From Chloroflexota bacterium (GTDB lineage Bacteria; Chloroflexota; Limnocylindria; P2-11E), in contig JAJYLV010000004.1 in NCBI GenBank assembly GCA_021787445.1, forward strand, positions 17,095 through 81,094: a stretch of DNA of 64,000 nucleotides, written 5' to 3'. Positions within the stretch are counted from its first letter, which is position 1, and each line of letters begins with the position of its first letter. The notes under the pieces were generated by a model that saw only the letters and a list, made by a program, of their open reading frames with translations, was not told where the DNA came from and made no database searches. Of this stretch, positions 21,691 to 32,228 are shown piece by piece. A program made the position numbers and the translations under genes.

Positions 21691-22815
21691 CTACCGCCAC
21701 GCGCGGGGGCGGTCGACCTCTCTGCGCTCCTGTCCGAACGCGCGAAAGCCCGCGGCCGGAGCGTCCTTCGCGAACAGGAGGACGCGGAACGCCCCCAGGC
21801 CGTTCGGATCGAGCAGCGTGTCCACGGCGGAGCGCCGGCTTGCGGCGCGCAGCTGCTCCAGGGGCGTCGACGGACGCGCCGCAGCCTCGCGGGCGCCGAG
21901 CGCGAGCAGCACCTCACGCTGCGTCCGTGCGCCGGCCAGCCGCAGCCCGGCGCCCTCGGCGGCGCGCCGTATCGCGGTGACGTTCACCGTCGCGGTGATG
22001 TCGATCTCCCCCGGACGCTGGAGCGGGTCGCCCATCAGGCGGTGCCGGCTGAACCCGCGGAGCGTCCCCTCGCCGAGGCGCGCGAGGAGACCCGCCTCGT
22101 CGTCGGCGTAGTCGATGAGGAGGAGGTAGCCGCGCGTGAGCGCGGCGGCGATCTGAGCGACCCAGCTTTCGGCCGCCAGGCTCACCTCCCAGCGCCCCCC
22201 CATCGGCAGCGTCTCCGGCACACGCCACCGCAGATCGGGCCGGCTGGCCGCGCGCAGCGTCTCCACGAGCCGGCTTCCCTCGGCGGCCACGTACACCTCG
22301 CGCACGCCGTCCTCGGTCCGCACCAGGACGTGGACCGGGAAGGCGTCGAGCACCTCGTTGCCGAAGATGAGACCGTGGATCGGCGCGAGCCCGTGCGCCG
22401 CCGTCGCCCACCGCAGCTCGCGCCCGCCGAGCGCGATCGCCTGGAGGTCGCGCAGGCGTGGCGACACCTCGACGATCGCGGGACGGGCTCCGCGCGCCGC
22501 GTCGGGACGCTCCCGCTCCAGAGCGGCGAGGAGGTCGCGCATGACGATGCCGCGCCCCGCGCCGGCCTCGACCAGGTCCCAGGCTGCGGGCCGCCCGAGC
22601 GCGGTGTGTGCGTCGATCGCCATCCGCGCGAGGGCGCGGCCGAAGGACGGACCGAGATCGCCCGACGTGAAGTAATCGGCGTCCTCGAAGCCGATCGCGG
22701 CGCGCGTGGTGTAGTAGCCGTCCTCGGGGTCGAAGAGGGCCGCTTCCATGAAGCTGGCGAAGGTGATGGGGCCGTTCGACCGGATACGCGCGATCAGACG
22801 GTCGGCCAGCGCCAC
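21691..22815 (-). CDS. SAM-dependent methyltransferase, MidA/NDUFAF7 family (DUF185, COG1565)
   Basis: LIARIRSNGPITFASFMEAALFDPEDGYYT N-terminus and Rossmann-like motifs (EAGAGRG). The start is uncertain; a GTG near 22815 is proposed. The track ORF extends to 23535. Confidence 0.7.
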   Translation of the reverse strand: MALADRLIARIRSNGPITFASFMEAALFDPEDGYYTTRAAIGFEDADYFTSGDLGPSFGRALARMAIDAHTALGRPAAWDLVEAGAGRGIVMRDLLAALERERPDAARGARPAIVEVSPRLRDLQAIALGGRELRWATAAHGLAPIHGLIFGNEVLDAFPVHVLVRTEDGVREVYVAAEGSRLVETLRAASRPDLRWRVPETLPMGGRWEVSLAAESWVAQIAAALTRGYLLLIDYADDEAGLLARLGEGTLRGFSRHRLMGDPLQRPGEIDITATVNVTAIRRAAEGAGLRLAGARTQREVLLALGAREAAARPSTPLEQLRAASRRSAVDTLLDPNGLGAFRVLLFAKDAPAAGFRAFGQERREVDRPRAWR

Positions 22816-23528
22816 GCGCCGAGGGTAGTCGCTCCCGACGGGCGGGAGGTCGCGCTCGGCGTCGGGAAGGGGTGGAAGCCGCTCTCGACGTAGTGGTCTC
22901 CGGCCCACGTGAACGTGCGCAGGATCCGCGGGTCGAAGCGTCCCCCGGCGACCCTGCCGCTCCCCTCGAGGACCGCCACGCGCCCCGGCGCGAGCTCGAT
23001 CTCCGCGAGCGCGCCGACGGGCCGGCGCAGAAGCTCCTCCATCCGCCCGCGCACCCATCGCGCGATCACGACCTCGTTCCGGCCGCAGGCCGTGCCGCCG
23101 CACTGGCCCACGACGTAGACGAGGTGCTCCTCGCCCGTGCCCGACGGGACGACAGCCAGCCTGAGGATGCGCCGCGCTTGTGCGGTCGCGGCGCTCTGGA
23201 ACGTGAGGTCGACGAGCGGCGACGCCGCGCCCGGCGGGCCGACACGCAGGTGCTGCGAGAGGACGGGCGGCTTCACCCTCACCCAGGTCTGGCGGAGCTC
23301 GACCTCGAGCGGTGGACCGCCCTGCTGTTCGATGGGGAAGGCGCAGCGCGCGTCGTTCCCCACCGGGAGGTACTGCCGCAAGGCGCAGAGGTCGTCGTCG
23401 ACGGGCGCCGCCGCGACCGCCGTCGAACGCGGCGCGAGAAGTCCCGACCAGTCGGCCAGGATCGCCCCGACCGCCGCCCAGGCGAGCACCGCGACGGAGA
23501 CCGCCAAGAGCCGCGCGCCCCTCCGCAT
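22794..23528 (-). CDS. hypothetical protein with N-terminal signal-anchor
   Basis: 244 aa. Hydrophobic N-terminus (LLAVSVAVLAWAAVGAIL), coding-like composition, and co-directional with the flanking genes. Confidence 0.45.
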   Translation of the reverse strand: MRRGARLLAVSVAVLAWAAVGAILADWSGLLAPRSTAVAAAPVDDDLCALRQYLPVGNDARCAFPIEQQGGPPLEVELRQTWVRVKPPVLSQHLRVGPPGAASPLVDLTFQSAATAQARRILRLAVVPSGTGEEHLVYVVGQCGGTACGRNEVVIARWVRGRMEELLRRPVGALAEIELAPGRVAVLEGSGRVAGGRFDPRILRTFTWAGDHYVESGFHPFPTPSATSRPSGATTLGAWRWPTV

Positions 23529-23575: not shown

Positions 23576-25990
23576 TCAGGCCCCCCAGCGAGGCGGCGCC
23601 GGCGGACGGACCTCCGGCGGACGCACCCTTCCGCGACGCTCCTCGCCGTCGGTGGGGATGGCCTCGCTCGGCTTCCAGGTCCGCGCGACGGCCAGCTCCT
23701 CCTTGGCGACGACGGTCCGCCCGAAACGCTGGTACACGGAGAGCTCGAAGTTCGGCGTCTCGCCGAGCGCGGCGTGGGGGCACACTTCGACGCAATCGCC
23801 GCAGTAGATGCAGCGGGTGATGTCGAGCTCCCACGTCTCGAGGTCGCGCTCGCGCATCATGAGCGCGCCCGTCGGGCACGTCTCCGCGCACGCCCCGCAC
23901 GACACGCAGTCGGTGTACTGGAGCGACACGTTCCACGGGGTCGTGACGATCGAGTCGTACCCGACGCCCATGAGGCCGTAGCAGTTCGCGCCGATCACGT
24001 CGCGGCAGATGCGCACGCACTGCGTGCAGTTGATGCACTTGTTGAGGTCGCGAAGGATGAAGTCGTGGCTGAAGTCGTACTCGTAGTCGTGGAAGTCGCG
24101 CGGCTCCGCCCGGTGGAAGCGGTTATCGGTCAGGCCGTGCTCGAGCGAGAGGCGCTGCAGGTGGCAGCGGCCGACGTCCGGGCACACGCACTGTAGGCAG
24201 CGCGCGGCCTCCTTCTCGGCCTGCGGCTTGGCGTATCCGTTCTCGATGAGCTGGAAGCTCTGCACCCGCTGGTCGAAGGGCAGGAACGGCATGCGGACCT
24301 GCGGCTCCTCGGGCTTGTAGGGCACGATGTCGATGAGCTCCGGCACCGACTCCTCTTCGGTGATCTCGGCGGCGACGCGCGCCATGTCGGCGCCGCTCAG
24401 GTACTGATCGATCGCTTTCGCCGCGAGCTTGCCCTGCGCGACCGATTGGATGACCGTGACCGCGCCCATCTGACAGTCGCCGCCGGCGAAGACGCCGGGG
24501 CGGTCCGTCATGAGCGCACCGCTGGCGACGATCGTCTCGCGCCGCGTCTTGCGCAGCCCCGGCGACCCCTCATACCAGTCGAGGTTCGGGACCTGGCCGA
24601 TCGCGGGGATGACGGTGTCGCACTCGATGACGAAGTCGGAGCCCTCGATCGGGACGGGACGCCGCCGGCCGGAGGCGTCCGGCTCGCCGAGCGCCATGCG
24701 CTGGAACTCGACGCCGCCCACGCGGCCGTCCTTCTCGACGACCTTCACCGGGGCCGCGAAGAACTCCAGCCGGATGCCCTCGTGCTCGGCGTCGTCGACC
24801 TCGCTGTAGTGCGCACCCATCTCCTTGCGCGAGCGGCGGTACACCACCGTCACGTCCGCGCCGAGGCGGCGCGAGGTGCGCGAGCAGTCGAACGTCGTGA
24901 AGCCTCCGCCGATGACGACGACCCTGCTGCCCTTCCCCACCGGCACCGGGTCGCCGGAGGCGTTCTGGTTCAAGTAGCTGATGGCCTCGATGACGCCGGG
25001 AAGATCCTCGCCGGGGATGCGGAGCTCGTTGCTCCGCCACGCGCCGAGCCCGAGGAAGACGGCGTCGTAGCCCTGCGCGAAGAGGTCATCGACCGTGAAG
25101 TCTCGGCCGAGCATCATCCCGCCCTTGAACTCGGCACCCAGCTGCCACACGCAGTTGAGCTCCTTGTCGAGCTTCACCTTGGGCAGGCGGTACTCGGGGA
25201 TGCCGTAGCGGAGCATCCCGCCCTGCTTCGGCATCATGTCGAACACCGTCACCTGGTGGCCCTTGAGCGAGGAGTAGTAGGCGCACGTCATCCCCGCGGG
25301 TCCCGCGCCGACGACGGCGACCCTCTTCCCCGTCGCCGGCGCCTGCGGGAACGGCGTCGGCGCCTTCTCCATCTCCGCGGAGAGCTCGCCGAAATAGCCG
25401 TGGCACTGGCGGATGGCGATCTCCTCCTCCACCAGGCCGCGGCGGCAGACCTCCTGGCACGGCGCCGGACAGACGAGGCCGAGCGCGTACGGGAACGGAA
25501 GCGTCTCCTTGAGCACGCGCGCGGCCTCGATGTGCTGGCCCTTGGCCTCGAGCTCGAGGAAGCCGGGGATGTCGATGTGCGTCGGGCAGCCGACCTGGCA
25601 GGGCGGCATGCAGTAGGCGTTGTGATCGCTGAGGATGTACTCGAGGTTCTGGCGTCGCTTCGTGAAGAGGCCGTCGCTCGTCGCCTTGATCTTCATGCCG
25701 GGCTGGACGGGCAGGTGGCACGACGGCATCGGCCGCTCGAAGCCCTCGATCTCGACGAGACACATGCGGCACGCCGCCGCGGGAGCGAGCTTCTCGTCGT
25801 CGCACAGCGTCGGGATGTTGTATCCGGCGCGTTGGGCCGCGCGGAGGATCGACTCGCCGATGGCGGCGGTGACCTCCTGGCCGTCGATCTCGATCGTGCA
25901 CGTGGGCATCCCCGAGGGGATCTCCCCGTGGTGCGACACGGTGGGGATCTGCGACTCGGTCGATTGGACGTACCGTTCGAGGATGCTCAC
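23576..25990 (-). CDS. multidomain iron-sulfur flavoprotein: NuoG-like N-terminal [2Fe-2S] ferredoxin + GltD-like FAD/NAD(P)H oxidoreductase + NuoG-like [4Fe-4S] motif + 2x[4Fe-4S] ferredoxin
   Basis: N-terminus TIEIDGQEVTAA...CDDEKLAPAAACRMCLVEIEG...PSCHLPVQPG (NuoG/2Fe-2S). Then CMPPCQVGCPTHIDIPGFL...LVCPAPCQEVC...KRVAVVGAGPAGMTCAYY...YGIPEYRLPK (GltD family). Then CINCTQCVRIC (NuoG N4-like), CVSCGACAETCP and CIYCGDCVEVCP. Confidence 0.8.
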   Translation of the reverse strand: MSILERYVQSTESQIPTVSHHGEIPSGMPTCTIEIDGQEVTAAIGESILRAAQRAGYNIPTLCDDEKLAPAAACRMCLVEIEGFERPMPSCHLPVQPGMKIKATSDGLFTKRRQNLEYILSDHNAYCMPPCQVGCPTHIDIPGFLELEAKGQHIEAARVLKETLPFPYALGLVCPAPCQEVCRRGLVEEEIAIRQCHGYFGELSAEMEKAPTPFPQAPATGKRVAVVGAGPAGMTCAYYSSLKGHQVTVFDMMPKQGGMLRYGIPEYRLPKVKLDKELNCVWQLGAEFKGGMMLGRDFTVDDLFAQGYDAVFLGLGAWRSNELRIPGEDLPGVIEAISYLNQNASGDPVPVGKGSRVVVIGGGFTTFDCSRTSRRLGADVTVVYRRSRKEMGAHYSEVDDAEHEGIRLEFFAAPVKVVEKDGRVGGVEFQRMALGEPDASGRRRPVPIEGSDFVIECDTVIPAIGQVPNLDWYEGSPGLRKTRRETIVASGALMTDRPGVFAGGDCQMGAVTVIQSVAQGKLAAKAIDQYLSGADMARVAAEITEEESVPELIDIVPYKPEEPQVRMPFLPFDQRVQSFQLIENGYAKPQAEKEAARCLQCVCPDVGRCHLQRLSLEHGLTDNRFHRAEPRDFHDYEYDFSHDFILRDLNKCINCTQCVRICRDVIGANCYGLMGVGYDSIVTTPWNVSLQYTDCVSCGACAETCPTGALMMRERDLETWELDITRCIYCGDCVEVCPHAALGETPNFELSVYQRFGRTVVAKEELAVARTWKPSEAIPTDGEERRGRVRPPEVRPPAPPRWGA

Positions 25991-26005
25991 GACGTCACTC
26001 TCTCC

Positions 26006-27241
26006 CTAGGGCTGCGCCATCGTCTCGTAGCGCCGCGCGCGGACCGGCGTGCAGGTCCCCTCCGGACAGCGGCGGTCGACGATGTGCGTGCGGTAGTCAT
26101 CCGGGAACTCGGCGAGCGTCGTCCGCACGATCGACGCGCTCGTGATCCCGAAGCCGCACAGCGAGAAATCGCTCAGGTGATCCGCGAGCTGGCCGAGCCA
26201 CGCGAGGTCGTCGTCGCGGCCGAGCCCCGAGGAGACGGACTCGAGGATCCCCCCGACGCGCTTGGTCCCGACGCGGCACGGCACGCAGATCGCGCAGGTC
26301 TCCTTCGACAGGTACTCGAAGAGGCGCGCCGCCTCCGCGACGATGCAGGTGCCCTCCGGGATCGCGCGCACCTGTCCGGATCCCATGTACGTTCCCGCCG
26401 CGCGAAGGTCCTCGTAGTCGTAGCGCACGCCTGTCCGGGTCGAGCTGAGGATCCCGCACGTCGGCCCTCCGACGTGGATCGCCTTGAGCGCGTGGGTCAC
26501 CCCGCCCGCCGTCTGGACGATCTCGCCGAGCGTCGTCCCGAGGCTCACCTCGTACACACCGGGCTCCACGACGGCTCCCGTGACCGAGACGAGCTTCGTC
26601 CCGCGGGAGCCCTCCCGGCCCCCGAAGGAGTCCGGGCCGTCGCGCACGATGAGGGGAAGCGCCGCGAGGGTCTCCGCGCACGAGACGAGCGTCGGCCGCA
26701 TCGCCCGCCCCTGCTCCGCCGGCCACGGCGGCCGCTGGCGCGCCATCGCGCGCTTGTTCTCGAGGACCGCGAGCAGCGCGCTCTCCTCCCCGCCCATGAA
26801 GCCGCCGGGGCCGAGCGCGATCTCGATCGACACGTCCGTCCTGCCGTCGCGCGAGGCGATGGCCCTCTCCGCGGCGCTCCGCGCGTCCGCCGCCTCGGGG
26901 CGCAGGTAGAGGTAGGCCTGGCGCGCCCCGACCGCCCGTGCCGCGATGAGGATCCCGTCGACGACGAGCTCGGGCGAGCGCCGCAGCAGCGTCTGCGACA
27001 GGGGGCTGGCGGGGTCCGCGTCGTACGCGTTGGCGACGAGGTAGGCGGCCCCGCCCGCGAGCTCGGCCGCGGTCCGCGTGGCCCGCATCTTCTCTCCGAG
27101 GGGGAAGCCGGCGCCGCCGCGTCCGCGCAGCGCCGCGCTCTCCACCAGCCCGATCGTCTCGTCGGGCGAGAGCGAGAGAGCGCGCTCGAGGGCGCCCGAC
27201 GGGTCGGCCCCCAGGACGCGGAACGCCGTCTCAGTCGGCAT
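26006..27241 (-). CDS. nuoF: NADH dehydrogenase 51-kDa subunit homolog (NuoF-like; FMN/NADH binding, [4Fe-4S])
   Basis: GRGGAGFPLGEKM, GEESALLAVLENKRA and the cluster N3 motif ETCAICVPCRVG...LCGFG. Confidence 0.85.
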   Translation of the reverse strand: MPTETAFRVLGADPSGALERALSLSPDETIGLVESAALRGRGGAGFPLGEKMRATRTAAELAGGAAYLVANAYDADPASPLSQTLLRRSPELVVDGILIAARAVGARQAYLYLRPEAADARSAAERAIASRDGRTDVSIEIALGPGGFMGGEESALLAVLENKRAMARQRPPWPAEQGRAMRPTLVSCAETLAALPLIVRDGPDSFGGREGSRGTKLVSVTGAVVEPGVYEVSLGTTLGEIVQTAGGVTHALKAIHVGGPTCGILSSTRTGVRYDYEDLRAAGTYMGSGQVRAIPEGTCIVAEAARLFEYLSKETCAICVPCRVGTKRVGGILESVSSGLGRDDDLAWLGQLADHLSDFSLCGFGITSASIVRTTLAEFPDDYRTHIVDRRCPEGTCTPVRARRYETMAQP

Positions 27242-27953
27242 ACGCGGGCTCCAGCGGTTGCTCTATCTCCGATTCGTGCAGCCTGTCGTACGCCGGAGGC
27301 GGCGACACCGGCGGCCACGCGCCGGCGATGCCGAGGTTGCCCGTGTAGCGCCGGCCACCGCGGGGCACCGGGGTCCCTCTGCCCGCGGGAGCGCCGTGGA
27401 AGTTCGGCAGCATCGAGGCCGCCGTGTAGATGCTCGTCATGGTCATGTCGAACTCCGCGGCGATGAGCTCGGCGGCGGTCCACGGCAGGTATCCGTACGC
27501 CTGGTGCGCCGCGTAGAGCACGCGGTGAAGGCGGTCCGCGGTGTGCGGCGTCTCGGTGAGGATGCGACGCATGGGTCCGAGGTCGAGCGCGGTCTCCTCC
27601 TCCGCGGGAACGGTCGTCACCACCTGCGACATCGGCCGGCGCGCCCCGTAGGGCGCGGAGCAGACCATGCGGATCCGGTAGTAGGCCATGCGCGGCGCCA
27701 TCGTCGGGCGCTTGCGGAAGCCGTTGCGGAACGTGTACGAGATCGAGATCGCGCGCGGCGGGCACGCTTTCTCGCACATGAGGCACGACTCGCACTTGAA
27801 AATGTCCGTCTCCGGCTCGAGGAGGAGCGCGATGAGGCCGCGGCTCCGCTCGGGGAGCTCCCGCTTCTCGTACGGGTACTTCCGCGTGACGGCCTTGTGC
27901 CGCAGCAGGTGGTCCATCGTCCGGCGCAGCCCGATGAAGATGCCGCTGATCAT
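27231..27953 (-). CDS. chimeric or degenerate ORF: NuoI-like N-terminal half (one CxxCxxCxxxCP motif) fused to a NuoE-like N-terminal helical domain that lacks the [2Fe-2S] cysteines
   Basis: Residues 1-95 match NuoI (RKYPYEKRELPERSRG...KCESCLMCEKACPPRAISI...YYRIRMVC) but the second ferredoxin motif is missing. Residues about 125-190 match the NuoE N-terminal domain (LHRVLYAAHQAYGYLPWTAAELIAAEFDMTMTSIYTAASMLPNFHGAPAGR). No Cys-bearing continuation is found in any frame. Confidence 0.5.
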   Translation of the reverse strand: MISGIFIGLRRTMDHLLRHKAVTRKYPYEKRELPERSRGLIALLLEPETDIFKCESCLMCEKACPPRAISISYTFRNGFRKRPTMAPRMAYYRIRMVCSAPYGARRPMSQVVTTVPAEEETALDLGPMRRILTETPHTADRLHRVLYAAHQAYGYLPWTAAELIAAEFDMTMTSIYTAASMLPNFHGAPAGRGTPVPRGGRRYTGNLGIAGAWPPVSPPPAYDRLHESEIEQPLEPAYAD

Positions 27954-27966
27954 CGCCCGCCGCTCC

Positions 27967-29163
27967 TCACCTATCGACGTCCCCGAGCACGATGTCGATC
28001 GAGCCGAGGATGGCCACGAGGTCGGCGATGAGGCGACCCTTGAGCAGCCACGGCAGGATCTGCAGGTTCATGAAGGACGGGCCGCGCATCTTCGCGCGGA
28101 ACGGATCCGGGTTCGACCCGCCGCTGCTGATCATGTAGAACCCGACCTCGCCCTTGGCGCCTTCGACCGTGTAGTAGGCCTCGCCGCGCGGGCACTTCCA
28201 CACGTGGCCTTGGCGCGAGCGGACGGGGCCCGCCGGCAGCTTGTCGATGGCCTCGCGGATGAGCGCGATCGAGAGCTTCATCTCGTTCACGCGGACCTGA
28301 TAGCGCGCGAACGCGTCGCCCTCGGAGAAGACGACCGGCTTGAGCGTCTTCAGCTCGGGGTAGATCGAGTACGGACGGTCACGCCGGAGGTCCCAGTCGA
28401 CGCCCGACCCGCGCGCCATCGGGCCGGTGAGCCCGTACTGGACGGCCACCTCCTTGGGGATGACGCCGATGCCCACCGTCCGCTCGAGGAAGATCTCGTT
28501 GCCCTCGAGGATCTCGCGGTAGTCCCGGTCGATCGACTTCTCCCAGCCGTCGAGGAAGCGCTCGATCTTGCCCAGGACGCCCTGGGGGAAGTCGTAGAGG
28601 AGCCCGCCGGGGCGGTAGTAGTTGTGGTTCATCCGCGACCCGCAGATCTCCTCGAGGATATCGAGGATGTACTCGCGGTCGCGCATGCACCACAGGAACG
28701 GCGTCGTCGCGCCGACGTCGAGGCCGTACGTCCCCAGCCAGATACAGTGCGACGCGGAGCGCGAGAGCTCGTCGACGATGACGCGCAGGAACTCGGCGCG
28801 GCGCGGGACCTCGACGCCGGCGATCGCCTCGGCCGCGCCGCAGTAGGCGTGCTCGTTGAGCATGGCCGAGACGTAGTCGGCCTGGTCGGCGTAGCGCGGC
28901 CCCTGCTGGTAGGTCCGCCACTCGAAGATCTTCTCGAGCCCGCGGTGGAGGTAGCCCACGACCGGCACGCAGTCGACGACCATCTCGCCGTTCAGCTTGA
29001 GGACGAGGCGGAGGACGCCGTGCGTGGAGGGGTGCTGCGGCCCGAGGTTGAGGATGAGCTCCTCGGTCTCGAGCCCTTCGCCGATGGTCTCGATCTCCGG
29101 CGGTCCGGCCTCCGCGGGCACGCCGCCCTGCTGCTCGTGCCGGGTGTCGGTCTCGGTGGCCAT
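27967..29163 (-). CDS. nuoD: NADH dehydrogenase 49-kDa subunit homolog (NuoD-like, not a [NiFe] hydrogenase large subunit)
   Basis: LNLGPQHPSTHGVLRLVLKLNGEMVVD...YLHRGLEKIFEW and a C-terminus ending VLGDVDR. Neither the N-terminal RxCGxC nor the C-terminal DPCxxC Ni-binding motif is present. Confidence 0.85.
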   Translation of the reverse strand: MATETDTRHEQQGGVPAEAGPPEIETIGEGLETEELILNLGPQHPSTHGVLRLVLKLNGEMVVDCVPVVGYLHRGLEKIFEWRTYQQGPRYADQADYVSAMLNEHAYCGAAEAIAGVEVPRRAEFLRVIVDELSRSASHCIWLGTYGLDVGATTPFLWCMRDREYILDILEEICGSRMNHNYYRPGGLLYDFPQGVLGKIERFLDGWEKSIDRDYREILEGNEIFLERTVGIGVIPKEVAVQYGLTGPMARGSGVDWDLRRDRPYSIYPELKTLKPVVFSEGDAFARYQVRVNEMKLSIALIREAIDKLPAGPVRSRQGHVWKCPRGEAYYTVEGAKGEVGFYMISSGGSNPDPFRAKMRGPSFMNLQILPWLLKGRLIADLVAILGSIDIVLGDVDR

Positions 29164-29172
29164 CAGATCCGC

Positions 29173-29757
29173 TCAACCACCCCGGAAGATCTTCTCGCGG
29201 AGCCGCAGGATGCCCTCGATCAGCGCCTCGGGGCGCGGCGGGCAACCGGGAACGTACACGTCGACCGGGACGACCGTGTCGACCCCCTGCAGCGTCGCAT
29301 AGCTGTCCCAGAACTCTCCGCCCGACGACGCGCAGTTGCCCATCGCGATCACCCACTTCGGCTCGGGCATCTGCTCGTAGAGGCGCCGCAGCCGCGGCGC
29401 CATCTTGTGCGTCACCGTGCCCGCGACGATCATGACGTCCGCCTGCCGGGGGCTCGAGCGGAAGACCTCGGCGCCGAACCGCGCGAGGTCGTGATGCGAG
29501 GCGGAAGCCGCCATCATCTCGATGGCGCAGCACGCCAGGCCGTAGCCGAGCGGCCACGGGCTGCGCGAGCGCGCCCAGCTCATGAGGTCCTTGACCGTCG
29601 CGAACACGACGTTGTCCTCGTTCGCGATCGCGCCGGGGGTCGGGGCGACGTAGTCGGGCGCCCCAAGGCCTGTCTGGGTGGTCGTCGGCCGCTGCTTCAG
29701 CGCGTCCGAGATCTCGAAGTGGATCGGCCGCGCGGGGGGCTTCTGGTCGACTGCCAT
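29173..29757 (-). CDS. nuoB: NADH dehydrogenase 20-kDa subunit homolog (NuoB-like, cluster N2 ligands present)
   Basis: [15 protein letters not shown] and GCPPRPE motifs. Confidence 0.85.
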
Positions 29758-29769
29758 CTGAGGTGGAGT

Positions 29770-30603
29770 CTAGGGAAGATCGCGCGGACCTTGCACGCGA
29801 AGCAGCAGCGCGACGAGGGCCTGGTGTATCCCCGGCCCGCTCGCGACCAGCGTCGGTGCGTCCGGCCGTACGCCCTTCGTCTCGCTGAGCATCCCTCCCG
29901 CCTCCGACACGAGGAGCCGTCCGGCCGCGCAGTCCCACTCGTGCCCGCCCGATTCCGCGTACGCATCCAGTCGCGACCCGGCGACCCACGCGAGGTCGAG
30001 CGCCGCCGATCCCATGCGTCGCACGTCGCGGACGGCCGGCACGATGAGCGCTTCGCGGCGCGCTTGCTCGCGCCGCTCCTCGGCGCTGTACGAGAACCCG
30101 TCGGCCAGGAGCGCGAGGCCCAGGTCGGCGACGCGGCTCACCGCGAGGCGGCGTGCCCCTGACGCGTCCGCCGACGCCCGCAGCCAGGCGCCCTCGCCGC
30201 GCACCGCGGAGAAGAGCTCATCGCGCGTCGGGTCGTAGGTCACTCCGACGAGGGGTCCGCGTGCGTCCGCGCACGCGATCGTCACGCACCACTGCGGGAT
30301 CCGGTAGAGGTAGTTCACCGTTCCGTCGAGGGGATCGACGAGCCAGCGCCGTCCCGAGGTCCCGCCCGAGCCGCCGCCCTCCTCCGAGACGATCGCGTCG
30401 TCGGGATACGTGCGACGGATCGCCGCCACGATGAGCGCTTCCGAGGCGCGGTCGGCGTCGCTCACCTCGTCCGTCGGCGTCGTCTTCGTCGCGCGCCCGG
30501 TCGCCGGGCCGCTCCAGCGATCGAGGAGGAGGCGGCCGGCGGCGACCGCGGCGCCTTCCGCCGTCGCGAGCACGTCGGCGCACGACCTCGGCGGCGCCGT
30601 CAC
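29770..30603 (-). CDS. inositol monophosphatase family protein (SuhB/ImpA-like)
   Basis: WLVDPLDGTVNYL and WDCAAGRLLVSEAGG motifs. GTG start overlaps the upstream stop (GTGA). C-terminal part of a longer track ORF. Confidence 0.8.
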   Translation of the reverse strand: MTAPPRSCADVLATAEGAAVAAGRLLLDRWSGPATGRATKTTPTDEVSDADRASEALIVAAIRRTYPDDAIVSEEGGGSGGTSGRRWLVDPLDGTVNYLYRIPQWCVTIACADARGPLVGVTYDPTRDELFSAVRGEGAWLRASADASGARRLAVSRVADLGLALLADGFSYSAEERREQARREALIVPAVRDVRRMGSAALDLAWVAGSRLDAYAESGGHEWDCAAGRLLVSEAGGMLSETKGVRPDAPTLVASGPGIHQALVALLLRVQGPRDLP

Positions 30604-32228
30604 TCCGTGGTGACGCGTCCCGCGCTGACGGGGGAGATCGGCGAGCGTGCGGCCAGGTAGGCCGCGACGACGTCGAGATCGACGTCGCCGTAGATCACGT
30701 TCGAGCCCTGCGTGAACACGGTGTGCCCATCGCCCCCGCCCTGAAGGTAGTCGACCGTCGCGACGTGGTAGACGCGCCCGGGATCGAGCGGCTGTCCGGC
30801 GATCGTCGCCCGCGCGACGCGGTCCCCCACCCTCGCGGACGATCGGTACGCGAGCGTCGCTCCGGACACGAAGAGCCTCCCCGCCGCGCCGGCCATCCCT
30901 TCGAACACCTCCCTCAGCTGAGCGCCGGTGAGGTCGACGCTCACCACGGTGTCCTGGAACGGCAGGACCTCCGCCAGGCGCTCGTACGTGACGTCGCCGC
31001 GCGGGATCGAGGCGCGGATGCCCGCGGCGTTGTAGAAGGCGAGGTCGCTGCGCCATCCCTCCCGTCGGCCGTAGTCGAGCAGCGCGTCGGCGACCAGCTC
31101 CCCCAGTGCGTTGTTCATGTCGCGGTCGGCGGCGAACGTCGCGCTCGCGGTCCCGACGACGCGCTTGCCGTACTTGTCGGCGTCGGCGCGGCGCTGCGCC
31201 ACGAGCGCGGCGACGCTCGCCAGAGGCGCGGCCGCCCCCGTCGTGACCGCAAGGATCACGTTGGACGTCCGCACCGACGCGACGTGCCGCGTCGCCGGGT
31301 CCACCGTGACCTCGACCCGCCCGAGCTCGCGTCCGTAGGCGCCGGCCTGGAAGATCATCGTCGGGCCCACGCTCCGGGGGGTCGTCAGCGTGATGTGATC
31401 GTGCCCGCCGATGATGAGGTCGATGCCCGGCACGGCCCCCGCGAGGGCGGTGTCGCCGCCCGCGATGCGCGACGTGCCGCCCTCGATGCCCAGATGGCTG
31501 AGGACGACGACGACGTCGGCCCGCCGCCGCACCTCCGGCAGGTATCTCCGCACGCTCTCGATCCCCGGCAGGAACACCAGGCCCTTCGTGCTGGTCGCCT
31601 TGATGATCGACGCGCTCGGATACGTCAGCCCGATGATCCCGACCCGCGCGATCCCGAGGTCCTTGACGATGTAGGGCGTCGCCCACGCCGGCGGCCTGCC
31701 GGTCGCGGACTCCACCACGTTCGCCGCGAGGAACGGGAAGCTCGCCTCCGCCGCCCGCTTCGCCAGCTCTTGCTGTCCCCAGTCGAGGTCGTGGTTGCCG
31801 ATCGTCTGCGCGTCGTACCCGATCAGGCTCATCGCCTTGGTCATCGACGCGCCGTGGTCCATTGCGGCGATCAGAGTGCCGCTGAGGGCGTCACCCGCGT
31901 CGAGCGTGAGCGTCCTAGTGGGAGCGCGCGAGCGCTGCAGCTGGATCATCCCACCGAGGAGCGCCATCCCGCCCTGCTCGACCGTCCGCCCCGCCGTCGT
32001 CGCGTCGAGGTGGCCGTGGATGTCGTTGGTGTGGAGGATCTGGAACGCGTTCGGCGGGAGGGAGGCGAGCGCGGCGACGCCCGGCGCGGTGCGCCCGGCG
32101 GACGGCGTCGCGGCGATCGGCGCGCTGGCCGTGCACGCCGCCGCGATGACCGCGGCGACGAGGAGAGCGAGAGCGCTACGCCGGCTGATGCGCCCGGTAC
32201 TGCAGCTCGTAGAGGCGATGGTAGACAC
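30600..32228 (-). CDS. secreted 5'-nucleotidase / bifunctional metallophosphatase (UshA-like), Tat signal lipoprotein
   Basis: TNDIHGHL and GNHD calcineurin-like motifs plus a 5'-nucleotidase C-terminal domain. Signal peptide with RRSALALL and AACTA lipobox. The GTG start overlaps the 3' end of the upstream ABC gene by about 50 nt. Confidence 0.75.
   Translation of the reverse strand: MSTIASTSCSTGRISRRSALALLVAAVIAAACTASAPIAATPSAGRTAPGVAALASLPPNAFQILHTNDIHGHLDATTAGRTVEQGGMALLGGMIQLQRSRAPTRTLTLDAGDALSGTLIAAMDHGASMTKAMSLIGYDAQTIGNHDLDWGQQELAKRAAEASFPFLAANVVESATGRPPAWATPYIVKDLGIARVGIIGLTYPSASIIKATSTKGLVFLPGIESVRRYLPEVRRRADVVVVLSHLGIEGGTSRIAGGDTALAGAVPGIDLIIGGHDHITLTTPRSVGPTMIFQAGAYGRELGRVEVTVDPATRHVASVRTSNVILAVTTGAAAPLASVAALVAQRRADADKYGKRVVGTASATFAADRDMNNALGELVADALLDYGRREGWRSDLAFYNAAGIRASIPRGDVTYERLAEVLPFQDTVVSVDLTGAQLREVFEGMAGAAGRLFVSGATLAYRSSARVGDRVARATIAGQPLDPGRVYHVATVDYLQGGGDGHTVFTQGSNVIYGDVDLDVVAAYLAARSPISPVSAGRVTTE

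Follow-up and report, generated by a model that had tools for sequence, protein, structure and literature searches.

This locus raises the question of what a set of complex I genes could do in a place where the genes for a membrane arm are missing. The window, by which we mean the whole 64-kb stretch of DNA that was analysed, contains five co-directional genes for homologs of hydrophilic complex I subunits, all on the minus strand and spanning 23576..29757, and it contains none of nuoA, C, H, J, K, L, M or N. An earlier note on this DNA correctly took the arrangement to be something other than a canonical nuo operon, and proposed either a novel soluble oxidoreductase without a membrane arm or a decaying second nuo copy. 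We instead consider it likely that the locus is the hydrophilic arm, minus NuoC, of the organism’s two-locus respiratory complex I, with NuoI split by a module of the Nfn-Bfu/Stn type. No published description of this split-NuoI arrangement was found.

In gene order, the open reading frames (ORFs) encode proteins of 194, 398, 240, 411 and 804 amino acids, which were assigned to families by Pfam and NCBIfam profile matches. Only 9 nt separate nuoB from nuoD, NuoC being cleanly gone from between them, and GC3 is 0.93-0.97 for each of the five ORFs. A genome scan yielded 297 relatives. Among 80 loci from Candidatus Limnocylindria (Chloroflexota), the five-gene order is identical in every locus long enough to judge, and the 10 kb on either side of the module hold no gene for NuoC or a membrane subunit. 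All cofactor ligands and the quinone-site His and Tyr residues are invariant (in 43-81 species), dN/dS is 0.03-0.36, and no frameshifts were seen in the relatives’ copies. All five are thus genuine, undamaged genes on which purifying selection acts.

The NuoB homolog (29173..29757, minus strand; PF01058, Oxidored_q6; TIGR01957, 240 bits), which would carry cluster N2, has the four N2 cysteines (C76, C77, C142 and C172), and these are invariant in 57 of 57 Limnocylindria orthologs. The NuoD homolog (27967..29163, minus strand; PF00346, Complex1_49kDa, 289 bits; PRK12322, 460 bits) has HPSTHG and GDVDR at the positions of the NiFe hydrogenase cysteine motifs. Among proteins of solved structure it is closest to NdhH (352 bits) and Thermus thermophilus Nqo4 (345 bits), whereas a membrane-bound hydrogenase scores 170 bits, and residues H44, H48, R74 and Y97 are invariant in 61 of 61 sequences. 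Judged from sequence, NuoB and NuoD are true complex I orthologs with a predicted quinone site, not hydrogenase subunits.

NuoI is distributed over two polypeptides. Its first half occupies residues 1-83 (27705..27953, minus strand) of the 240-aa ORF (27231..27953, minus strand), of which residues 9-82 match positions 2-72 of the 121-position NuoI model TIGR01971 (42 bits). This half contains the N-terminal helix, a YPYEK..P.RSRG motif and one CxxCxxCxxxCP motif, whose ligands C54, C57, C60 and C64 are invariant in 81 of 81 sequences. The second half, with the C-terminal tail, lies at the end of the 804-aa fusion (23576..23845, minus strand), at about residues 716-770 (CIYCGDCVEVCP...PNFE); it matches model positions 69-111 (46 bits), and its ligands C727, C730, C733 and C737 are invariant in 42 of 42 sequences. 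When concatenated, the two halves give one contiguous match to positions 2-111 with 91.6 bits, and both tile canonical NuoI sequences in an alignment. These matches indicate that nuoI is cut in two by an inserted, putatively NAD(P)H-oxidising module.

The rest of the 240-aa ORF (27231..27704, minus strand) comprises a linker, a predicted NuoE N-terminal helical domain at about residues 115-190 that lacks the [2Fe-2S] ligands, and a tail that is conserved and predicted to be disordered. The match to the NuoE model PF01257 (positions 2-65 against residues 129-192) scores 22 bits, which is below the cut-off, and distant homologs of the protein contain a full NuoE with its Cys ligands. An AF2 model is poor overall (mean pLDDT 56.9) and is confident only at residues ∼115-185. 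The top Foldseek matches of this poor model are all N-terminal domains of NuoE, FdsG, HydC or StnA, with weak E-values (0.009 to about 1, none ≤0.001); for most of the matches of the Bfu and formate-dehydrogenase types, the rmsd is 1.7-2.4 Å over 62-69 columns. The protein has 645 homologs at E ≤ 0.001; almost without exception, the best 120 of these have a length of 230-252 aa and an identity of 71-86%.

The NuoF-like protein (26006..27241, minus strand; PF01512, Complex1_51K; PF10531, SLBB; PF10589, NADH_4Fe-4S) has the core expected of a flavoprotein with an FMN/NADH site and cluster N3, and its GRGG and GGEE motifs and C316, C319, C322 and C362 are invariant in 62 of 62 sequences. Its best PDB matches are the HydB, NfnB and StnB cores (252-267 bits), with NuoF proteins scoring lower (172-222 bits). 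The N-terminal 2Fe-2S and C-terminal ferredoxin domains of Bfu B subunits are absent. The 804-aa fusion (23576..25990, minus strand) consists, upstream of the NuoI second half, of a StnC/NfnA-like part (23846..25990, minus strand) that matches Fer2_4, Fer4_20, Pyr_redox_2 and Fer4_Nqo3; the fusion also matches Fer4_7 and PRK12814 (580 bits). A NuoG-type [2Fe-2S] domain is followed by a GltD FAD/NADPH domain within an N5-type loop and by a NuoG/HydA-type 2x[4Fe-4S] domain, and there is no molybdopterin-like domain. The protein carries CINCTQCVRIC and two CxxCxxCxxxCP motifs, its residues 31-733 align with residues 4-695 of StnC (8oh5_C, 535 bits), and NfnA of C. saccharolyticus (9bov_A) matches with 566 bits. 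All cluster cysteines, GAGPAG, GGGF and YRRxR are invariant in 43 of 43 sequences. By homology, the module between the NuoI halves is a reduced member of the Nfn-Bfu/Stn type, in which a NuoF core resembling BfuB is paired with the StnC/NfnA-like protein, and the GltD-type YRRxR motif together with the StnC homology suggests that the GltD domain uses NADPH.

Much of what the earlier note read from the letters is confirmed by these matches, namely the five consecutive co-directional genes, NuoB with intact N2 ligands and NuoD without NiFe cysteine motifs, the NuoF homolog with its FMN/NADH site and N3, the chimeric nuoI/E-like ORF, the fusion of a NuoG N-terminus with GltD and ferredoxin motifs, and the resemblance to Stn and Nfn enzymes. 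The second half of NuoI at the C-terminus of the fusion, and hence the split of nuoI, had been overlooked.

In related genomes, the missing subunits are encoded at another locus. Nineteen high-GC soil contigs (64-69% GC) carry nuoA-C-H-J-K-L-M-N without B, D or I. NCBI proteins from Limnocylindria metagenome-assembled genomes (MAGs) match the products of these contigs, either exactly or as members of the same 90% identity cluster. Accession numbers of second-locus proteins and of the I/E chimera are 43-72 apart in two MAGs and 203-1,748 apart in five more pairs; examples from the same submission are TMB63379-83 and TMB63426, TMC34652-56 and TMC34584, TMB94542-44 and TMB95098, HEY8785868 and HEY8786071, and TMC79164 and TMC78355 (second locus and chimera, respectively). 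This links the two loci in at least six Limnocylindria MAGs other than the window’s own, assuming that GenBank numbers proteins consecutively within a submission. The evidence consists of contigs and accession proximity rather than whole genomes, so that a further copy of nuoB, D or I is conceivable. The second locus lacks exactly B, D and I, and therefore the most likely reading is a complex I encoded at two loci, with the genes for its peripheral arm in the window. In the KO lists of the CSP1-4 family that were compared, which are pooled by habitat and cover habitats other than soil, nuoA, B, C, D, F, H, J, K, L, M and N are present and nuoE, G and I are absent (PMC13212565). The authors of that study call complex I complete in P2-11E, QHBO01, CSP1-4 and Limnocylindraceae, the four families that they studied.

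In two Thermoleophilia MAGs (L090 and L006), the order nuoA-B-C-D-H-[I'::E]-[BfuB-like F]-[Fer2_4+GltD+Fd+I'']-J-K-L-M-N is contiguous. The NuoI split, the fusion architecture and the order of inserted genes are the same as in the window, and the fusion is 49% identical. Unlike the window, however, this operon is contiguous with NuoC and all membrane subunits, its NuoE is complete with Cys ligands, and its F is a full 630-aa Bfu-type protein with extra clusters. Other relatives include a variant with F::GltD and HoxU::I'' (L087), the closest outgroup with a truncated E, in which nuoH lies directly upstream of the chimera (L091), and a related Bfu module with a split ferredoxin that is attached to a soluble domain of the POR type (L088). 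Passing from a contiguous ancestor to two loci requires several rearrangements, since A, C, H and J-N must all be parted from B, D and the insert; such a history lacks parsimony and counts against the proposal.

The flanks had been described as an inositol monophosphatase gene and a methyltransferase gene. The former indeed lies upstream of the module, whereas the latter follows a 244-aa ORF (22794..23528, minus strand) with an N-terminal hydrophobic segment and no Pfam match, which is present in only 5 of about 85 loci and probably lies outside the system. The NDUFAF7/MidA-family methyltransferase (21691..22815, minus strand; 374 aa; PF02636, 181 bits) probably belongs to the system and is not an unrelated flank. 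In 44 loci its gene follows the fusion, mostly at a distance of no more than about 1.2 kb; the distance reaches about 6 kb in a few loci (L018, L020, L021), and in L004 the gene overlaps the fusion’s stop codon. The candidate target of the enzyme is an invariant residue of NuoD, R74 in the HRG motif. In the Thermoleophilia operon, unlike in Limnocylindria, no PF02636 gene is nearby.

Gene content, the split, conservation, and the second locus with its co-occurrence in the same MAGs were computed here, and from them we infer how the parts might assemble and operate. An NAD(P)H module of the Nfn-Bfu/Stn type would have inserted, in an ancestor, into the nuoI loop between its two cluster motifs. 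NuoI would therefore be produced as two half-ferredoxins: the N-terminal one belongs to the same chain as a NuoE-like protein, and the C-terminal one is fused to the end of the StnC/NfnA-like protein. In Limnocylindria, NuoE would then have been reduced to the helical NuoF-docking domain without the N1a/C1 cluster and NuoF to its FMN/N3 core, and the molybdopterin-like domain of NuoG/StnC would have been lost. NADH would reduce FMN on the NuoF-like subunit and NADPH would reduce FAD on the GltD domain, with both feeding one Fe-S chain that leads from N3 or the two GltD clusters to the [2Fe-2S] and NuoG-type [4Fe-4S] clusters. Next may come the two NuoI clusters, each presumably ligated by cysteines of both polypeptides, then N2 on NuoB and menaquinone in a pocket formed by NuoD, NuoB and NuoH, followed by proton pumping by NuoL, M and N. 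The proposed function is a proton-pumping complex I fed by both nucleotides; electron bifurcation is disfavoured here, since the Bfu-specific clusters have been lost.

If the module docks on the membrane arm, its job could be something other than simple NAD(P)H oxidation, namely that of an NADH:NADP+ transhydrogenase, or of a pmf-driven quinol:NADP+ reductase supplying NADPH. Such a role, which we regard as unlikely, would suit the descent of the module from Nfn/Stn transhydrogenases and the invariance of both nucleotide sites, and two flavins on one chain might ease hydride exchange between the pools thermodynamically. However, the clusters specific to bifurcation are gone (the NuoE-like subunit has no C1, and the B subunit has none of its extra clusters), and complex I normally runs forward in aerobic heterotrophs. 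Also counting against it is pntAB (K00324, K00325), a dedicated transhydrogenase, in the same CSP1-4 lists (PMC13212565). Decay or redundancy, with the genes as pseudogenes, might be read from the truncated NuoE, the NuoF without extra domains and the NuoG without its large domain, but has a negligible probability. The ORFs are full length and keep their order, the best 120 homologs of the 240-aa protein are much alike in length and sequence, and the invariant ligands and low dN/dS add to a record of conservation that refutes this idea.

It is quite improbable that the genes specify a stand-alone soluble NAD(P)H oxidoreductase, in which NuoB and NuoD would form a terminal module on a Bfu-like diaphorase, much like the small and large NiFe subunits of HydABCSL, and would reduce a soluble acceptor. 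Bfu ABC proteins with NuoB/D-like S and L subunits provide a soluble precedent (7t2r; PMC12018979), and the POR-linked module of L088, the absence of neighbouring NuoC and membrane-subunit genes and the clean 9-nt junction left by NuoC are in keeping with it. Against this, the same MAGs hold the locus for the missing subunits without its own B, D and I, so that the membrane arm would be orphaned, and in relatives whose contexts are seen (L006, L090, L087 and L091) the module lies in or beside membrane-subunit genes. In canonical complex I structures, the N-terminal region of NuoI (TYKY) contacts NuoH/ND1, and here this region is invariant, as are the quinone-site His and Tyr residues. The absence of the nuoI KO from the compared CSP1-4 lists (PMC13212565) also disfavours a soluble enzyme.

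The two-locus complex I proposed here shares with the canonical enzyme (NuoA-N; T. thermophilus Nqo1-16, E. coli) NuoB with N2, the NuoD quinone-site residues, both NuoI cluster motifs, the FMN/N3 core of NuoF, the NuoG-type 2Fe-2S and 4Fe-4S domains and, in relatives’ genomes, NuoA, C, H and J-N. It differs in that NuoI is on two polypeptides, NuoE lacks N1a, NuoG has an inserted GltD FAD/NADPH domain and no molybdopterin-like domain, the NuoF-like protein resembles Bfu B subunits more than NuoF, and the genes are at two loci with B and D apart from C and H. The bifurcating transhydrogenases StnABC and Nfn-Bfu (NfnABC; 8OH5, 9BOV/9BP5, 9N5U) have the same gene order (C-like, B-like, A-like), and ∼700 residues of the fusion align with StnC/NfnA. 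However, half of NuoI stands where StnC has its FdhF-like C-terminal domain, the additional domains of the B subunit are gone, and the C (NuoE-like) subunit lacks its 2Fe-2S cluster, so that the bifurcating site is predicted to be dismantled; the module would also be attached to a quinone-reducing module rather than partnered with ferredoxin. The NiFe-HydABCSL bifurcating hydrogenase (A. mobile, 7T2R) and HoxEFUYH, the closest precedent for a soluble enzyme, likewise join a NuoE/F/G-like diaphorase to NuoB-like and NuoD-like subunits, but these are group 3 hydrogenases whose large subunits have NiFe cysteine ligands, in contrast to the quinone site and membrane arm predicted here. In Mbx-like operons, a GltD-related subunit replaces NuoI in a group-4-hydrogenase-like complex (Degli Esposti 2015, PMC4758237). 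These resemble the present system in that an NAD(P)H flavoprotein of the GltD type accompanies a membrane enzyme related to complex I, but by their description they differ from it, since here NuoI is kept but split, and GltD is embedded in a NuoG/StnC scaffold and accompanied by a flavoprotein resembling NuoF.

Five open reading frames are arranged head to tail on the minus strand between positions 29757 and 23576 of the window (~71% GC), spaced 9, 13 and 15 nt apart except for one pair that overlaps by 11 nt, and their GC3 values range from 0.93 to 0.97. Pfam and NCBIfam models bear out the subunit assignments of the earlier note, including those of a NuoI/NuoE chimera and a GltD fusion. The genes encode, in order, NuoB, NuoD, a 240-aa chimera, a NuoF-like protein and an 804-aa fusion. 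The N-terminus of the chimera corresponds to the first 72 of 121 NuoI model positions and its middle to only the first 65 NuoE model positions, while in the fusion a NuoG-type 2Fe-2S domain is joined to a GltD FAD/NAD(P)H domain and to ferredoxin motifs. FMN, NADH and N3 motifs are evident in the NuoF translation, and all four N2 ligands of NuoB (C76, C77, C142 and C172) are present, as had been read from the sequence, and are invariant in 57 of 57 Limnocylindria orthologs. A scan for promoters and terminators was uninformative, returning 0 promoters and 1 terminator-like site, which is chance level.

At E ≤ 0.001, a search with the 240-aa protein retrieves 645 homologs. Nearly all of the best 120 are 230–252 aa long, with 71–86% identity, and the named ones among these 120 come from Chloroflexota or Candidatus Limnocylindria. 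Scanning one genome per species revealed 297 relatives of the module, and the best 80 of these loci all belong to Limnocylindria save a few that are evidently mis-binned. The synteny check proposed in the earlier note gave a uniform result among the Limnocylindria loci: the order NuoB-NuoD-chimera-NuoF-fusion is identical in every contig that is long enough. Cluster ligands of the module proteins are invariant across 43–81 species, as are the FMN and NADH motifs, the FAD GxGxxG and the NADPH-type GGG...YRRxR, and pairwise dN/dS values of the module genes are 0.03–0.36. Given these invariant ligands, the purifying dN/dS range and the conserved gene order, the module is not a decaying second nuo copy or a cluster of pseudogenes, an alternative that had been raised earlier.

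Kinship with [NiFe] hydrogenases was assessed through NuoD. None of the N- or C-terminal NiFe-ligating cysteine pairs of group 3 and 4 hydrogenases was found in this protein, confirming the initial reading; HPSTHG and the C-terminal GDVDR occupy the corresponding positions, and a DYVS motif is also present. The quinone-site residues H44, H48 and Y97 are invariant (61/61). The top PDB matches are NdhH (352 bits) and Nqo4 of T. thermophilus (345 bits), with membrane-bound hydrogenase at 170 bits; overall, hydrogenase models score 18–170 bits against NuoD, compared to 345–460 bits for NuoD and Nqo4.

NuoI is divided between two proteins of the module. The N-terminus of the chimera matches positions 2–72 of the NuoI model TIGR01971 (42 bits), and positions 69–111 are covered by the final cluster motif of the fusion (CIYCGDCVEVCP...PNFE; 46 bits). 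An artificial concatenation of the two gives one contiguous match over positions 2–111 at 91.6 bits, although neither half nor the concatenation reaches the model cut-off of 113 bits. In alignments the pieces tile four canonical NuoI proteins from other operons, with the break in the loop between the motifs. Both CxxCxxCxxxCP motifs of NuoI therefore exist, on different proteins, and no single polypeptide qualifies as NuoI. In the 2x[4Fe-4S] ferredoxin fold, each cluster is held by three cysteines of one motif plus a fourth contributed by the other, so both NuoI clusters would bridge two polypeptides.

An AF2 model of the chimera is poor overall (mean pLDDT 56.9, pTM 0.43) and is confident only for the NuoE-like helical domain at residues ~115–185; no fold is predicted for the half-ferredoxin alone. 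The top structural matches are all N-terminal domains of NuoE, FdsG, HydC, StnA or NfnC; for most of those of the Bfu and formate-dehydrogenase type, rmsd values are 1.7–2.4 Å over 62–69 columns. None of their E-values is at or below 0.001 (range 0.009 to about 1), and with such weak scores the matches support the NuoE assignment only alongside the sequence evidence. The tail of the chimera (residues ~195–240; window 27231-27374, minus strand), which reads RGGRRYTGN.G.AGAWPP..., is kept across Limnocylindria, is predicted to be disordered and stands in place of the thioredoxin-like domain of NuoE. A separate 228-aa database protein, P0222, combines the first half of NuoI, the N-terminal domain of NuoE and the C-terminus of NuoH, which could reflect a genuine rearrangement or an error of assembly or gene calling. 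In a literature search of incomplete coverage we found no publication on a complex I in which NuoI is split or the N-module bears GltD, and the Limnocylindria genomics papers do not discuss this architecture.

The absence of nuoA, C, H and J-N from the module, pointed out in the earlier note, extends to the entire 64-kb window and to the 10 kb on either side of the module in 80 loci (~1 Mb). A metagenome scan with a NuoH alignment recovered 19 contigs of 64–69% GC that carry nuoA-C-H-J-K-L-M-N, with overlaps or short gaps and without B, D or I; a Pfam check of contig L096 confirmed this gene content. This gene set complements the module exactly. Proteins of these contigs are identical to, or share 90% clusters with, NCBI proteins from soil MAGs labelled ‘Chloroflexi bacterium’ and from Candidatus Limnocylindria MAGs. 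Members of the NuoK cluster also occur on contigs of 1.2 Mb. Because the flanks of the membrane-arm contigs and the module loci share no genes, the two loci were linked through exact protein look-ups, which cover Limnocylindria MAGs other than that of the window. Proteins of one GenBank submission are numbered consecutively, and the accessions of chimeras and membrane-arm proteins lie close together: TMB63426 with TMB63379-83 (NuoH-M; distance 43–47), TMC34584 with TMC34652-56 (68–72), HEY8786071 with HEY8785868 (203), TMB95098 with TMB94542-44 (about 555), TMC78355 with TMC79164 (809), TMC56962 with TMC55883 (1,079) and TMC30311 with TMC28563-67 (about 1,746). On the premise of consecutive numbering, both loci reside in the same MAGs. 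The search for nuo genes elsewhere yielded an A, C, H, J-N locus in Limnocylindria MAGs rather than a full nuoA-N operon, as B, D and I are absent from it, and the notion of a soluble enzyme lacking a membrane arm gives way to the likelier reading that the missing half is encoded at a second site.

Independently, the pooled KO lists consulted for family CSP1-4, from the source data of a 2026 Limnocylindria genomics paper, include K00330-33, K00335, K00337 and K00339-43 and lack K00334, K00336 and K00338 (PMC13212565). The KOs absent from those lists correspond precisely to nuoE, nuoG and nuoI, the three subunits remodelled in the module. The authors of the paper describe complex I as complete in each of the four families that they covered, P2-11E, QHBO01, CSP1-4 and Limnocylindraceae (PMC13212565).

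Other NuoH queries led away from Limnocylindria. A Thermoleophilia NuoH matched proteins from Thermoleophilia only, and a NuoH fragment from outgroup contig L091 matched mostly short fragments, the two that were pursued (L092 and L093) being from other lineages. One of these, from a sponge-associated ‘Chloroflexi bacterium’ (L092, 1-5795; GCA_009845245.1, 64% GC), has nuoH followed by nuoJ-K-L-M-N without nuoI, and the nuoH-J junction resembles that of the Limnocylindria membrane-arm locus. The other (L093, 6588-10771; 50% GC) has nuoA-C-D-H, without nuoB and with nothing nuo-like past H. Split nuoA-C-D-H loci of this kind, at 50–61% GC, comprise L093, L100-L102, L104, L109, L116, L117, L121 and L139-L141, and some of their protein matches are named Ktedonobacteraceae. 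Module and membrane-arm proteins also occur in SMAG assemblies labelled Udaeobacter, Saccharimonadales, Acidiferrales, Bathyarchaeia, Methylomirabilota and Verrucomicrobiae (module loci L034, L035, L050 and L067 among them), which are almost certainly mis-binned Limnocylindria contigs.

More distant relatives place the same insertion in a single operon. In two Thermoleophilia MAGs (L090, 7393-21122; L006, 5523-11550) the order is nuoABCDH-[I'::E]-F-[G'::GltD::I'']-JKLMN, where I' and I'' denote the first and second halves of NuoI. Here I'::E is 253 aa long, NuoF is a 630-aa Bfu-type protein with extra clusters, and the counterpart of the fusion (824 aa, 49% identity) has the same architecture, with the NuoI half at its end. 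The L090 B subunit has both the N-terminal 2Fe-2S and the C-terminal 2x4Fe-4S domains, and the NuoE of the operon has Cys ligands; distant chimera homologs (24–48% identity) likewise contain a complete NuoE with Cys ligands. The insert is a full Bfu-type set, and the Thermoleophilia operon could encode a membrane-bound complex I whose bifurcation core is intact. In L087 (359-11571; 49% GC), nuoH and I'::E are followed by a 1048-aa NuoF::GltD, a 265-aa HoxU-like::I'' and nuoJ-N. There GltD forms the C-terminus of NuoF and the second NuoI half ends a separate HoxU-like protein, a pattern that, set against the NuoG-type fusion, suggests that GltD was fused twice, independently. In L091, the nearest outgroup whose NuoE is likewise truncated, nuoH lies immediately upstream of the chimera. 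Contigs L088 (1804-7726) and L089 carry a related module joined to a TPP-binding POR-type domain: POR genes adjoin those for a half-ferredoxin::NuoE, for a HydB-like protein and for a StnC-like one whose C-terminus is a TPP_enzyme_C domain, in what looks like a soluble Bfu-type 2-oxoacid oxidoreductase with the same split-ferredoxin adaptor. These contexts indicate that the inserted module predates Limnocylindria, and its usual place is inside a membrane complex I operon, exactly at the position of nuoI.

A PF02636 (NDUFAF7/MidA-type) methyltransferase gene at window 21691-22815 (minus strand; 181 bits to the family model) follows the module, as it does in 44 loci, overlapping the stop codon of the fusion in one. 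NDUFAF7 methylates Arg85 of NDUFS2, the mitochondrial homolog of NuoD. We take R74 of NuoD, in an HRG motif, to be the counterpart of that arginine and the candidate target; it is invariant (61/61). By this analogy, the adjacent gene hints at arginine methylation, known from mitochondria, of a bacterial NuoD. Between the fusion and the methyltransferase gene lies a 244-aa ORF (window 22794-23528, minus strand) with an N-terminal hydrophobic segment. The ideas that it is a divergent NuoC or serves as a membrane anchor were weighed and rejected, as it has no family match and is absent or replaced in most relatives. Ahead of nuoB, genes for a 5'-nucleotidase and an inositol monophosphatase (window 29770-32228, minus strand) may be co-transcribed with it; the stop codon of the latter is 12 nt from the nuoB start, and a 5'-nucleotidase homolog is upstream of nuoB in 29 loci.

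The module of the window most likely supplies the peripheral arm of a complex I whose genes are divided between two loci. Because of homology to complex I and StnC, electrons are predicted to pass from NADH through FMN to N3 in the NuoF-like protein and, by the GltD route, from NADPH through FAD to two [4Fe-4S] clusters. Both donor routes would meet at the 2Fe-2S and NuoG-type clusters and continue through the two NuoI clusters and N2 to menaquinone. Nucleotide use, direction of flow, docking on the membrane arm, reduction of quinone and pumping of protons are all predicted from sequence.

Complex I is the standard example of modular evolution, with an NADH module generally held to stem from a single recruitment. 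We regard it as a serious possibility, if not quite a probable one, that an 11-subunit-type complex I recruited an NAD(P)H-oxidising module again, independently of the first occasion, through insertion of a Bfu/Nfn-type cassette into nuoI. The result would be a proton pump with NADH-FMN and NADPH-FAD entry points and with N6a and N6b bridging two polypeptides; in Thermoleophilia, where the Bfu core is intact, quinone reduction might even be coupled to bifurcation or confurcation. If true, nature would have repeated the recruitment of the NADH module by splicing a transhydrogenase-type module into nuoI, in a variant that spans Limnocylindria, Thermoleophilia and other lineages. The variant also points to NADPH as a direct donor to a proton-pumping complex I, and it provides a rare, predicted example of [4Fe-4S] clusters common to two polypeptides. 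In these bacteria, which are abundant in soil and freshwater, pathway tools will call nuoE, G and I missing and may then wrongly point to an incomplete or a soluble enzyme.

The resemblance of the NuoF-like protein and GltD fusion to Stn/Nfn enzymes, recognised at the outset, is supported by alignments. Residues 31–733 of the fusion align with three proteins of solved structure, NfnA of Caldicellulosiruptor saccharolyticus (9BOV, 9bov_A; 566 bits), StnC of Sporomusa ovata (8OH5 chain C, residues 4–695; 535 bits) and NfnA of Thermococcus sibiricus (501 bits). The NuoF-like protein scores 252–267 bits against the B subunits HydB, NfnB and StnB of bifurcating enzymes, but only 172–222 bits against complex I NuoF. 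Its 411 aa match just the core of Bfu B subunits (for example, 140–537 of 597 in 7t2r_B), and the N-terminal 2Fe-2S and C-terminal 2x[4Fe-4S] domains are missing. The C-subunit [2Fe-2S] beside FMN is part of the bifurcating site in Bfu enzymes (PMC12018979), whereas the NuoE-like part of the Limnocylindria chimeras contains no cysteines, which distant homologs have. With these C- and B-subunit clusters lost, the Limnocylindria enzyme is more likely to be a simple dual-donor dehydrogenase than a bifurcating one. The N-module of canonical complex I needs NuoE with N1a and NuoG with a molybdopterin-like domain; the module has neither, and the domains of the fusion stop after the Fe-S part. In StnC, an inserted GltD domain is accompanied by a 2Fe-2S domain, by clusters of the NuoG type and by an FdhF-like domain that is inactive (PMC10482914). 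The fusion has the 2Fe-2S, inserted GltD FAD/NADPH domain and NuoG-type clusters that characterize a Bfu A subunit, and so shares every part of StnC save the FdhF-like domain.
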